DNA from: a virus
Lineage: Duplodnaviria > Heunggongvirae > Uroviricota > Caudoviricetes
DNA length: 64,000 nt
Strand: one strand, 5' to 3'
Virus record (IMG/VR): IMGVR_UViG_3300045988_161152
Numbering within the stretch: position 1 is the first letter of the stretch; each line of letters starts with the position of its first letter. A program made the position numbers and the translations under genes. The notes under the pieces are model-generated. The model was not told the DNA's origin. It ran no database searches and saw nothing but the letters and a program-made list of their open reading frames with translations. Below are positions 6,628 to 7,602 of the stretch, piece after piece.

Positions 6628-7602
6628 ATGAACATCCTGATCATTGGGCGAAAATTTGAAGCTATCAGTGATGTGAAAACATATACGGAAATGTGGGCTT
6701 ATAACCTGGCCTGCGCCTTTAGTGAGGCAGGGGTAACATTGCAATACCATCGTCCATATTCCCCTGGCGTCGAAAGCCCGGAGGATTATGTTGAAGCTGT
6801 GTTGACTGCTGCGACCGCATGTTCTGCGAAGGCCATTTTGGCACCAGGATTGAGGTATTTTACTACGGTACCCAGGGAAATAGGCATGCAACTGTGTCGC
6901 CGATTCTCTGGATGGGTAGCCCAGGTATATGACGGTTCTATGCTGGATTCGGCACCAGTCGATATTACTTTTACTGTCCGCGATGATACCTGGCGGTACC
7001 TGGATAATCCCGGCAGGTTAGAGCGTCATAATCGTTTTAACAAACATGTTGGATGGGCAGCGAATCAGGAGCTGTTCCATCTGGAAACCAAAACAGACGA
7101 TATTCTGCGTATTTTTGTAGACCACGCTGCATTTGATGTTAGTGGTTTTGATCACTCCTTAAGTATCCTTATGAACCTTCAGCGTCTGACCGTTCCGTAT
7201 GAGGCCAGAACGTTGACTGATGACGGATTGGTTACCATTGATCCGGGGAATATTTCGGTAACTCCATACAGGCGGACGCCGGTGCCAGCAACCGAATTTG
7301 CAGCTGAATTGCGTAAGAGTGACGTTTTTATCGTTACGCATCCCGAAAGCCTTGGATTAACTGTTCTTGAGGCGGCAATGTGTGGAGCGTTGATATTAAC
7401 TCCGCCCGATTGCCTTCCGCCGGATCGCCTGGAGTTGGTGAACCATATGGTTATCAAGTCGCGGATTGATTGGGATGAGGTTATTGCTCGCGTTGATCGC
7501 GTGAAAAATGCTGAAAAGGTCCAGTGTCACACCTGGTCGGCAATTGCGGAAAAGATGCTTGAGACGTTTATCACGCAGAAACCGTCGCGCGGTAACGGAT
7601 AA
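6628..7602 (+). CDS. Glycosyltransferase-like protein (GT-B fold, GT4-type C-terminal motif)
   Basis: Motif ESLGLTVLEAAMCGALIL resembles the GT4 E-x7-E signature; start moved to ATG 6628 because of the GAGGA RBS (ORF track start 6604). Confidence 0.5.
   Translation: MNILIIGRKFEAISDVKTYTEMWAYNLACAFSEAGVTLQYHRPYSPGVESPEDYVEAVLTAATACSAKAILAPGLRYFTTVPREIGMQLCRRFSGWVAQVYDGSMLDSAPVDITFTVRDDTWRYLDNPGRLERHNRFNKHVGWAANQELFHLETKTDDILRIFVDHAAFDVSGFDHSLSILMNLQRLTVPYEARTLTDDGLVTIDPGNISVTPYRRTPVPATEFAAELRKSDVFIVTHPESLGLTVLEAAMCGALILTPPDCLPPDRLELVNHMVIKSRIDWDEVIARVDRVKNAEKVQCHTWSAIAEKMLETFITQKPSRGNG

Follow-up and report, generated by a model that had tools for sequence, protein, structure and literature searches.

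The dbn gene of bacteriophage P1, together with pmgO, pmgP and pmgQ, constitutes a single set of four genes, which is contiguous in unrelated phages and split in P1. We tentatively propose that this set is a portable four-enzyme module, in which Dbn would be a retaining GT4-type glycosyltransferase of the GT-B fold, and that it builds a glycan of hexose and ulosonic acid, a virion protein being our guess at the acceptor. The analysis was performed on a 64,000-nt stretch of viral DNA (hereafter, the window), which is P1-like, being 99.8% identical to MH422554 over positions 5000-8500; the gene located 3' of ban in it is P1 dbn (AAQ14048).

The first-pass annotation of the window reported a 324-aa product encoded directly downstream of ban, and both the reading frame and its position proved to be real: the open reading frame listed at 6604..7602 of the plus strand (332 aa) contains an internal ATG at 6628, from which 324 aa are translated. 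The ban stop codon overlaps the upstream ATG of dbn (TAATG), and GAGG is present 7-8 nt 5' of each of the two ATGs. The start at 6628 has better support than the one given in GenBank (6604), which is probably not the main one, since the Met encoded at 6628 aligns with the first residue of nearly all homologs; since dbn begins at the equivalent ATG, with its own AAGGAGA, in those P1-like loci (17 of 124) where ban and dbn are separated by an inserted 101-aa ORF; and since the stretch from the upstream ATG to the one at 6628 is interrupted in two alleles, by TAA immediately following the upstream ATG in one and by a frameshift in the other. The hairpin 3' of dbn (-17.7 kcal/mol, z -3.4), missed by a consensus terminator scan and revealed by folding, is likely a bidirectional terminator. 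The gene was intact in all 76 P1-like loci tested and is under purifying selection (dN/dS 0.11 over 49 alleles), all candidate catalytic residues being kept across these alleles.

Table 1. Coordinates of dbn, its partner genes and associated elements in the window
Feature	Position	Strand	Description
Oban/Op72	2414..2441	.	bivalent C1 operator of the ban operon; consensus, 0 and 2 mismatches; P1 annotation
ban	5234..6604	+	DnaB-like helicase; upstream gene, one transcription unit with dbn
8-codon N-terminal extension	6604..6627	+	start in the GenBank P1 annotation; ATG overlaps ban stop
dbn CDS	6628..7602	+	324 aa, divergent GT-B (GT4-like) glycosyltransferase; ORF, PHROG 2518, predicted GT-B model
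E-x7-E helix (E240...E248)	7345..7398	+	in invariant block T-H-x-E-S-x-G...E...G
hairpin	7623..7649	.	11-bp, GC-rich, with A/T-run flanks; between convergent dbn and gene 5
gene 5	7649-8281	-	convergent with dbn
Oppp (Op83)	13380..13396	-	C1 operator 5' of pmgN-pmgO-pmgP-ppp-pmgQ
pmgO	13537..14199	+	MptE-like, resembles GT42/Maf sialyltransferases
pmgP	14097..14723	+	pmgO paralog, module partner
ppp	14705..15397	+	lambda-type Ser/Thr phosphatase; Metallophos, E 9e-16
pmgQ	15394..16095	+	GT8-like GT-A glycosyltransferase; DxD and FHGxPRP motifs

The GT-B glycosyltransferase-like identity assigned to dbn from its letters is supported both by the predicted fold and by the alignment of the E-x7-E motif. 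Structure prediction (pLDDT 95) yielded a GT-B model of two Rossmann-like domains with a C-terminal helix crossing back; its structural neighbours are GT4 enzymes, and no non-GT fold was obtained. The motif, E240-x7-E248, lies within ESLGLTVLEAAMCGALIL (residues 240-257). It exceeds chance, because both glutamates are invariant in 53 homologs with identity down to 28% and because, in the comparison of the family profile with GT4 structures of the PDB, the same helix falls in register with the E-x7-E of 8xsg, MshA and PimA. The helix also aligns with a Glycos_transf_1 protein and with PF00534 (residues 221-307 on Pfam positions 83-169; E 3e-5; 23.9 bits against the gathering score of 26.4), in agreement with the initial reading of it as a typical C-terminal motif of GT4. 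More broadly, in GT4 enzymes (PimA, PimB', MshA, BshA, sucrose-phosphate synthase, GlgM, WaaG), which are soluble and cytoplasmic as is Dbn, the C-terminal E-x7-E helix aligns residue for residue, whereas Dbn is shorter (324 aa against 340-440).

Sequence likeness of Dbn to GT4 is limited to this helix: when the family was compared, profile to profile, with a canonical Glycos_transf_1 protein encoded in a capsule locus, the helix alone aligned, with a probability value of 1.5%, and sequence cannot place the other catalytic residues of Dbn. Neither the N-terminal glycine loop of GT4 nor the Arg/Lys pair following the first strand of the C-terminal domain is recognisable in the family alignment, and the binding of the donor by Dbn may therefore differ from that in GT4. 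Instead, the family possesses its own invariant set (D102, W143-A144, D165-H166, D175 and H238), where D165-H166 occupies the place of the Arg/Lys pair by topology only; in all, about 13 polar or aromatic residues besides E-x7-E are invariant family-wide. Single-sequence search of the PDB with Dbn returned noise only, and a search of NCBIfam gave a single weak match (TIGR02472, E 0.018).

The idea of a sugar transferase is already in public annotation; the PHROG 2518 profile matches Dbn over its full length (E 1e-232; residues 1-324 on positions 9-332), and PF00534 is precomputed as a match for the 332-aa cluster representative, which NCBI names 'glycosyltransferase family 4 protein'. What appears to be new in this analysis is that the Dbn family is small and discrete. 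It comprised 73 homologs and, among 1.84 billion proteins, 425 representatives, the family profile retrieving no canonical GT4 from that set. P1-like contigs made up most of the matches in the viral and metagenome scans; five useful loci came from searching the viral data again with a marine sub-alignment, and the GTDB genomes gave three loci, namely, one P1-like contig, one fragment of 209 bp and one weak match in Prochlorococcus.

The glycosyltransferase-like genes noticed earlier around ppp are pmgO, pmgP and pmgQ, and the count of at least four candidate sugar transferases in the element is thereby upheld, dbn being the fourth. PmgO matches PHROG 4603 (E 4e-74), while PF01973 matches PmgO and PmgP below threshold (23.4 and 20.9 bits, respectively, at a cut-off of 34.6). 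The profile of the PmgO/PmgP family found Cst-II (E 2e-5) and also matched an LOS sialyltransferase (9c08), Cst-I, Maf (5mu5) and MptE, the likeness to CMP-sialic acid transferases extending over the nucleotide-binding core (GxGPS ... G-x-D); as judged from these profiles, both proteins are like GT42/Maf sialyltransferases. PmgQ is GT8-like: its predicted model (pLDDT 94) has the GT-A fold, the top 50 Foldseek matches are mostly GT8 and related retaining GT-A enzymes, and the DxD (D79-L-D81) and H-x-G-x-P-[KR]-P (H208-G-x-P-R-P) motifs are invariant or nearly so in its alignment. The PmgQ profile matched Gat1 (E 3e-6) and GlyE in the PDB, and the nearest structures are the protein-glycosylating Gat1, GlyE and glycogenin. 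Transmembrane-like segments are absent from all four proteins (highest 19-residue hydropathy ≤1.55), none of which matched the PADLOC defence models.

A contiguous, overlapping PmgO-PmgP-Dbn-PmgQ cassette was found in three phage lineages other than P1, namely, a lambdoid metagenome contig (L093), a P2-like metagenome contig (L094) and the isolates EP_H11/IME392 (L103). In P1 the order is pmgO-pmgP-ppp-pmgQ, ppp filling the slot which in the other phages is taken by dbn, and dbn itself lies ~6 kb away in another operon. No Ppp homolog was present in any of the other cassettes, and nothing was seen in favour of a PRPP-dependent ribofuranosyl transfer by Dbn in concert with the neighbouring phosphatases ppp and pap, a notion drawn from the Hib/K13 literature and dropped. 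Dbn is followed directly by a PmgQ homolog in L003, L005, L097, L098, L100, L154 and L160, which comprise contigs of marine T4-like phages and further loci from metagenomes. PmgQ is the most constant neighbour of Dbn homologs and is carried by all 22 isolate phage records with Dbn. Two natural fusions join a PmgO-like to a Dbn-like part (P0148) and a Dbn-like to a GT-A-like part (P0229). In L104 a fused gene, a PmgQ-like gene and a methyltransferase gene are situated inside the head-tail structural block, with head-closure, HK97-gp10-like and tail-completion genes as neighbours; the genes upstream in L104 were not identified as capsid genes. The cassettes of L093 and L094 adjoin terminase and portal genes. 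Clusters of marine phages also include genes for a polysaccharide pyruvyl transferase and a sugar nucleotidyltransferase.

Both P1 units are controlled by the C1 repressor. A consensus scan with three mismatches allowed revealed 14 sites in the window against 0.24 expected; among them, the bivalent Oban belongs to the ban operon and places dbn under prophage repression. Oppp, with the 17-mer CATGCACTAATTAATTT, reproduces the annotated P1 site exactly and escaped the scan because it differs from the consensus at four positions. With both units under C1, the enzymes are expected to be produced during lytic growth but to be shut off in the lysogen. For dbn, pmgO, pmgP and pmgQ, in-frame deletions are available (Gonzales et al. 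2022), and deletion or CRISPRi knock-down of these genes and of ppp was published to leave plaques without defect.

The fold, the motif, the conserved neighbourhood, the fusions and the purifying selection form the basis of the proposed mechanism, whereas the catalysis by Dbn, the donors, the retaining chemistry and, above all, the acceptor are what we infer. Dbn would be a soluble cytoplasmic GT-B hexosyl transferase of the retaining GT4 type, holding its nucleotide-sugar donor by the invariant E240-x7-E248 helix; PmgQ would be a hexosyl transferase of the GT8 type, and PmgO and PmgP would act as CMP-ulosonic-acid transferase-like enzymes, using probably CMP-Kdo in E. coli K-12. The four enzymes may join hexose and ulosonic acid into a short glycan on a cytoplasmic acceptor, the location being suggested by the absence of transmembrane-like segments and the ulosonic acid by the MptE-like/WaaZ_KDO_III neighbours of bacterial homologs and the Kdo genes in one of their loci (L150). 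In P1 the module would have been split by entry of ppp into the slot of dbn and movement of dbn behind ban, both parts staying under C1 and, hence, presumably being expressed in lytic growth only.

As acceptor, a virion protein is our first guess, to which we lean owing to the structural block of L104, the terminase and portal neighbours in L093 and L094, the nearest structures of PmgQ and the Maf relatives of PmgO and PmgP. Maf-type relatives glycosylate flagellin. Likened by description and not by homology, the virion glycosylation of mycobacteriophages, reportedly treated by Freeman et al. 2023, likewise involves phage-encoded cytoplasmic glycosyltransferases in or next to structural blocks, and its genes are dispensable for plaques, as are those of the P1 module. 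The Dbn module differs by the Gram-negative host and by the ulosonic-acid transferase-like pair, and no P1 virion glycoprotein is known, none having been found in the literature searched. That the modules of P1, lambdoid, P2-like, EP_H11-group and marine T4-like phages all decorate virion proteins with a short glycan of Kdo or another ulosonic acid and hexose is a rather doubtful generalization.

It is possible, though somewhat unlikely, that the same module acts on a host envelope glycolipid at the cytoplasmic face of the inner membrane, i.e., on the Kdo/heptose/glucose region of the LPS core or on a lipid-linked polysaccharide. The cell surface would then be changed during lytic growth, for example, by removal or masking of the P1 receptor (terminal core glucose), with the benefit of keeping progeny from being lost to debris or of shutting out other phages that bind LPS. 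Such an acceptor is favoured by the bacterial homologs of Dbn, which belong to the serotype-specific part of kps capsule loci and stand beside MptE-like genes, and by the pyruvyl transferase and nucleotidyltransferase genes of the marine clusters. Five bacterial loci have the order [319-aa protein][MptE-like, with a faint WaaZ_KDO_III match][Dbn-like]; four of them (L007, L008, L150, L153) were confirmed as kps-type, and the fifth (L142) has no neighbour annotation. The neighbours include KpsC/S, KpsMT, KpsD and, once, Kdo-synthesis genes, KdsA-like and KdsB-HAD genes lying between the MptE-like and Dbn-like genes of L150. These are polysaccharide loci and not protein glycosylation loci, which we count against the virion proposal.

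On the other hand, the genes are C1-repressed in the lysogen, so that an envelope change would not be a classical lysogenic conversion; several phages have the cassette within or next to their virion structural genes; and membrane anchors and flippase partners are lacking. LPS synthesised within a single lytic cycle makes up only a minor part of the surface. Seroconverting prophages (gtrABC, O-acetylases) are also temperate phages with genes that, like the dbn module, could alter surface glycans. Their systems consist of membrane proteins that work in the periplasm and are produced by the lysogen, whereas Dbn and its partners have no membrane segments, are repressed by C1 and are not integral membrane proteins of the GtrA/GtrB/Gtr type. 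A parallel is offered by the capsule polymerases of Neisseria meningitidis W/Y, in which a GT4 hexosyltransferase is joined to a sialyltransferase. They resemble the Dbn set, though likened to it without sequence relationship, by pairing an E-x7-E hexosyltransferase with an ulosonic-acid transferase-like domain (fused in P0148) and by occurring in capsule loci of the ABC-transporter type; the partner of Dbn, however, is MptE-like (GT42/Maf) and not GT97, and the phage versions add GT8 and have no export genes. The beta-Kdo transferases GT99/GT107/GT140 (WbbB, KpsC, KrkA) share with Dbn the kps loci and the architecture of a two-domain nucleotide-sugar transferase. Their C-terminal domain carries, at its start, a QxxxD nucleophile motif (PMC12887879), whereas Dbn has Q99-x-x-D102 in the N-terminal domain and no C-terminal QxxxD. 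None of these enzymes was among the top structural matches of Dbn, and its identity as a retaining beta-Kdo transferase was rejected.

Unlikely, in our estimation, is the view that P1 dbn acts alone, as an accessory gene or a remnant of a decayed module with a target unrelated to pmgO, pmgP and pmgQ. It accords with the distance between dbn and the other genes and their different operons, with a Citrobacter P1-like plasmid (L092), where pmgQ comes immediately after pmgP and Dbn is encoded 5 kb away, and with the P1 relatives phi456 and JK004, which have pmgQ and no detectable dbn. In view of the split in P1 and of the latter two phages, Dbn may not be obligatory for PmgO, PmgP and PmgQ. Nevertheless, the unfailing presence of PmgQ in the isolate records with Dbn, the recurrence of adjacency in very distant phages, the fusions, the C1 control common to both P1 units and the strong purifying selection on dbn all argue against it.

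The tight coupling of Dbn to PmgQ and the absence of the canonical donor-binding motifs of GT4 except E-x7-E would also agree with Dbn being a non-catalytic GT-B scaffold or chaperone that presents the substrate to PmgQ, on the model of GtfB, Asp1 and Gap1 aiding GtfA in the glycosylation of serine-rich adhesins; invariance of E-x7-E and of the other polar and aromatic residues is a pattern typical of an active site, and we regard a scaffold role as quite improbable. Of the targets originally envisaged for Dbn (LPS, phage proteins and DNA), DNA is the least likely: glycosylation of phage DNA against restriction, as performed by the T4 alpha- and beta-glucosyltransferases or the enzyme of HY126 (whose DNA contains arabinosylated 5-hydroxycytosine), is very improbable, as these enzymes share the GT-B fold with Dbn but score lower against it in structure than glycan-building GT4 enzymes, dbn has no associated base-hydroxylation genes, its close homologs occur in bacterial capsule loci, its partners are of the sialyl/Kdo-transferase and GT8 types, and antirestriction activity was published to be unchanged in 24 non-essential knock-outs (of 29 made) including those of dbn, pmgO, pmgP and pmgQ. 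P1 DNA, which ordinary restriction enzymes cut, is not known to carry hydroxylated or hydroxymethylated bases.

The label of a glycosyltransferase adds nothing to the databases, and the useful result is the four-gene module. Four genes of the best-studied transducing phage, listed as 'function unknown / putative morphogenetic', become one conserved mobile sugar-transferase module, present also in unrelated temperate and marine phages and having bacterial relatives in capsule loci; four orphan genes of P1 are thus brought under one testable hypothesis, for which the single-gene deletions already exist. If the target is the LPS, the module would represent a lytic-cycle form of surface remodelling. 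If it is the virion, the module would provide the first case of virion glycosylation among phages of Gram-negative hosts and extend phage protein glycosylation from mycobacteriophages to enterobacterial phages, with a bearing on the immune recognition of therapeutic phages and on P1-based delivery vectors.

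The window belongs to the P1-type phage-plasmids; its segment 5000-8500 shares 99.8% identity with Punavirus P1 MH422554 and 99.1% with the reference P1 genomes. The ORF of interest corresponds to dbn of P1 ("downstream of ban"). Its placement directly behind ban in the first-pass annotation was borne out, as ban runs to 6604, where its stop codon and the first dbn ATG overlap (TAATG). GAGG lies 7-8 nt 5' of each of two dbn ATGs (6604 and 6628). Three lines of sequence evidence favour 6628 as the true start, and thus the 324-aa product originally proposed: (i) the Met encoded at 6628 aligns with the start of nearly all Dbn homologs; (ii) an inserted 101-aa ORF separates ban from dbn in 17 of 124 P1-like loci, where dbn starts at the 6628-equivalent ATG with its own AAGGAGA ahead; (iii) individual dbn alleles have a stop codon immediately behind the upstream ATG or are frameshifted between the two ATGs. 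The inserted segment (about 300 bp; L074:7699-8004 in one such locus, corresponding to window 6604/6628) encodes an ORF that begins MMQRKLTKRNKNW and whose stop overlaps the dbn ATG.

The GC content of dbn is ordinary for the P1-type element, and the ORF listing of the window contains no substantial minus-strand ORF overlapping it. The gene was intact in all 76 P1-like copies examined, and dN/dS was about 0.11 across 49 distinct alleles, all of which retained the candidate active-site residues; dbn is therefore maintained by selection. In published P1 work, neither in-frame deletion of dbn nor its CRISPRi knock-down caused a plaque defect.

Coordinates of dbn, its predicted partner genes and associated regulatory elements in the window
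Feature	Position	Strand	Remarks
C1 operator, bivalent	2414-2441		ahead of the ban-dbn unit; C1 site scan
dbn ORF, longest form	6604-7602	+	332 aa; ORF listing
dbn ORF, shorter form	6628-7602	+	324 aa; internal ATG
GC-rich hairpin, 11 bp	7623-7649		between dbn and convergent baseplate gene 5; sequence, folding
Oppp operator	13380-13396		ahead of pmgN-pmgQ; unchanged from annotated P1 site
pmgO	13537-14199		
pmgP	14097-14723		
ppp	14705-15397		phosphatase gene, in the slot held by dbn elsewhere
pmgQ	15394-16095		

A glycosyltransferase function of Dbn is already present in public annotation: the GenBank P1 entry reads "function unknown, possible glycosyltransferase", the P7 record names the gene glt, and RCS47 and RefSeq label the protein "glycosyltransferase family 4 protein". 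Support from the single sequence is thin, as Pfam Glycos_transf_1 scored 23.9 bits (cut-off 26.4) over residues 221-307 only, PHROG 2518, which matches Dbn over its full length, has no assigned function, and a PDB search with the single sequence found nothing. Among 53 Dbn homologs, E240 and E248 are invariant within the invariant block T-H-x-E-S-x-G...E...G, and in the profile of these homologs their helix aligns exactly with the E-x7-E motif of 8xsg, MshA and PimA, all GT4 enzymes. The AlphaFold2 model built from the same alignment (pLDDT 95, pTM 0.91) adopts a predicted GT-B fold, an assignment we regard as close to certain, and all top Foldseek matches are glycosyltransferases. Since the model is GT-B and not a non-glycosyltransferase fold, and the E-x7-E does align with GT4 motifs, the initial reading of the gene as GT-B glycosyltransferase-like stands.

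The Dbn family lies at a distance from GT4. It is small and discrete, its profile matching only 425 of 1.84 billion cluster representatives at E <= 0.001, with canonical GT4 proteins absent from these matches. Profile-profile alignment with a canonical Glycos_transf_1 protein was restricted to the E-x7-E helix. In the 53-homolog alignment, neither the N-terminal glycine loop of GT4 nor the Arg/Lys pair that follows strand one of the C-terminal domain was recognisable. For these reasons Dbn is described here as GT4-like, i.e., a GT-B protein with a retaining-type E-x7-E whose GT4 membership is unproven. The family's own invariant residues (D102, W143-A144, D165-H166, D175, H238 and W303) are placed, from topology alone, in the interdomain cleft. 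A sizeable subfamily (P0217, P0223, P0225, P0230, P0234, P0235, P0238, P0241, P0246) carries a further domain of about 190 aa C-terminal to the Dbn-like one; in P0200 and P0202 the Dbn-like domain is fused to SAM methyltransferase-like and GxSxG esterase-like domains, respectively.

Gene neighbourhoods of distant Dbn homologs were collected and compared with the window genes. The order PmgO-PmgP-Dbn-PmgQ recurs as a tight overlapping cassette in a lambdoid contig (L093, with one additional GT-A-like gene), a P2-like contig (L094) and the E. coli phages EP_H11/IME392 (L103). In P1, dbn lies behind ban, about 6 kb from pmgO-pmgQ, and the ppp gene is absent from all other cassettes compared. Dbn has a PmgQ homolog directly behind it in T4-like phage contigs of marine origin and in further metagenome loci (L003, L005, L097, L098, L100, L154, L160). 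PmgQ is present in each of the 22 isolate phage records that contain Dbn, and Dbn is missing from 10 of the 32 with PmgQ. Fusions join PmgO-like to Dbn-like (P0148) and Dbn-like to GT-A-like domains (P0229), and P0186 is a tandem Dbn. The early estimate of at least four sugar-transferase genes was correct in number (dbn, pmgO, pmgP, pmgQ), and these form one module rather than four unrelated genes, with Dbn a likely member. P1-type phi456 (OR339795) and Cronobacter phage JK004 (MZ188976), with pmgQ at 97% and 74% identity and no Dbn tblastn match, may be naturally dbn-less relatives of comparative use. Elsewhere, L162:5703-7585 holds a tandem pair of Dbn-like genes, paralleling P0186, with two GT-A-like genes (L093_189 family) ahead. 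The 281-kb marine contig L003 (flagged at 20301-21002 and 7190-10004) has a further MptE-like gene adjoining the terminase gene, and GT8-like, sugar nucleotidyltransferase-cupin, GT47-like and polysaccharide pyruvyl transferase genes in its Dbn-homolog cluster.

The DxD of PmgQ is invariant, and the protein also has an FHGxPRP motif; its profile matches Gat1 (E 3e-6) and GlyE, both GT8 structures, and most structural matches of its model (pLDDT 94) are GT8 enzymes, glycogenin and LgtC among them. The PmgO/PmgP profile matches Cst-II, a GT42 sialyltransferase of Campylobacter (E 2e-5), and further an LOS sialyltransferase, Cst-I, a Maf flagellin glycosyltransferase and MptE; the Pfam MptE-like score was under threshold, and the PHROG label is "alpha-2,3-sialyltransferase". 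No membrane segment was found in any of the four proteins. The annotated pmgO and pmgP overlap by 103 nt (14097-14199); most aligned homologs lack an equivalent of roughly the last 25-40 residues of P1 PmgO, which makes the conserved protein shorter than its annotation.

Five loci contain a gene for a 319-aa protein, an MptE-like gene with a faint WaaZ_KDO_III signal and a Dbn homolog, in that order. Four (L007, L008, L150, L153) are confirmed as capsule loci of the ABC-transporter (kps) type, surrounded by KpsC/S, KpsMT and KpsD; in the fifth (L142) the neighbours carry no annotation. Between the MptE-like and Dbn-like genes, L150:4629-6785 encodes a KdsA-like protein (DAHP_synth_1) and a KdsB-HAD fusion (CMP-Kdo synthetase and HAD phosphatase), hinting at Kdo in its polymer. 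These gene neighbourhoods link the MptE-like/Dbn pair to an ulosonic-acid-containing polymer, the ulosonic acid probably being Kdo. CMP-Kdo is the only CMP-ulosonic donor known in E. coli K-12, and PmgO and PmgP would therefore most plausibly use it.

Dbn is predicted to be an active retaining GT-B hexosyl transferase, catalysis being likely, and would contribute one of the steps by which four cytoplasmic enzymes assemble a glycan: ulosonic acid would be added by PmgO and PmgP, and hexoses by Dbn and PmgQ. As to the acceptor, we lean slightly towards virion proteins, because the head-tail block of L104 encloses the fused gene together with genes for a PmgQ-like protein and a methyltransferase, terminase and portal genes border the cassettes of L093 and L094, and both the nearest relatives of PmgQ and the Maf-type relatives of PmgO/PmgP act on proteins. 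An envelope glycan has comparable support, in that bacterial Dbn homologs occur in capsule loci. DNA glycosylation is unlikely, since antirestriction activity was unchanged in the non-essential knock-outs, the dbn deletion among them, and PmgO, PmgP and PmgQ are of the wrong kind for it. A Dbn serving as a non-catalytic scaffold, or acting stand-alone, is a minor alternative to an enzyme working within the module.

The C1 site scan found 14 sites in the window against 0.24 expected. With C1 operators ahead of both units, both parts of the module are repressed in the lysogen and produced in lytic growth, a pattern that speaks against classical lysogenic conversion. About 170 bp downstream of the ban-operon C1 operator, and preceding the tRNA genes and ban, a strong terminator-like hairpin that includes a T run (2604-2623) may attenuate the dbn-containing operon. 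Judged by the offset to reference P1 AF234172, the ban operator is some 198 bp closer to ban than predicted, implying an indel with respect to that record in the tRNA/plp/upl/tci region (2441-5000).

In the literature searched, dbn, pmgO, pmgP and pmgQ are discussed only for non-essentiality and expression changes, and no description of the module context of dbn was found. The identification of Dbn as a glycosyltransferase is correct, yet had been annotated before; what is added is the module context, and mutants that allow a direct test of it already exist.
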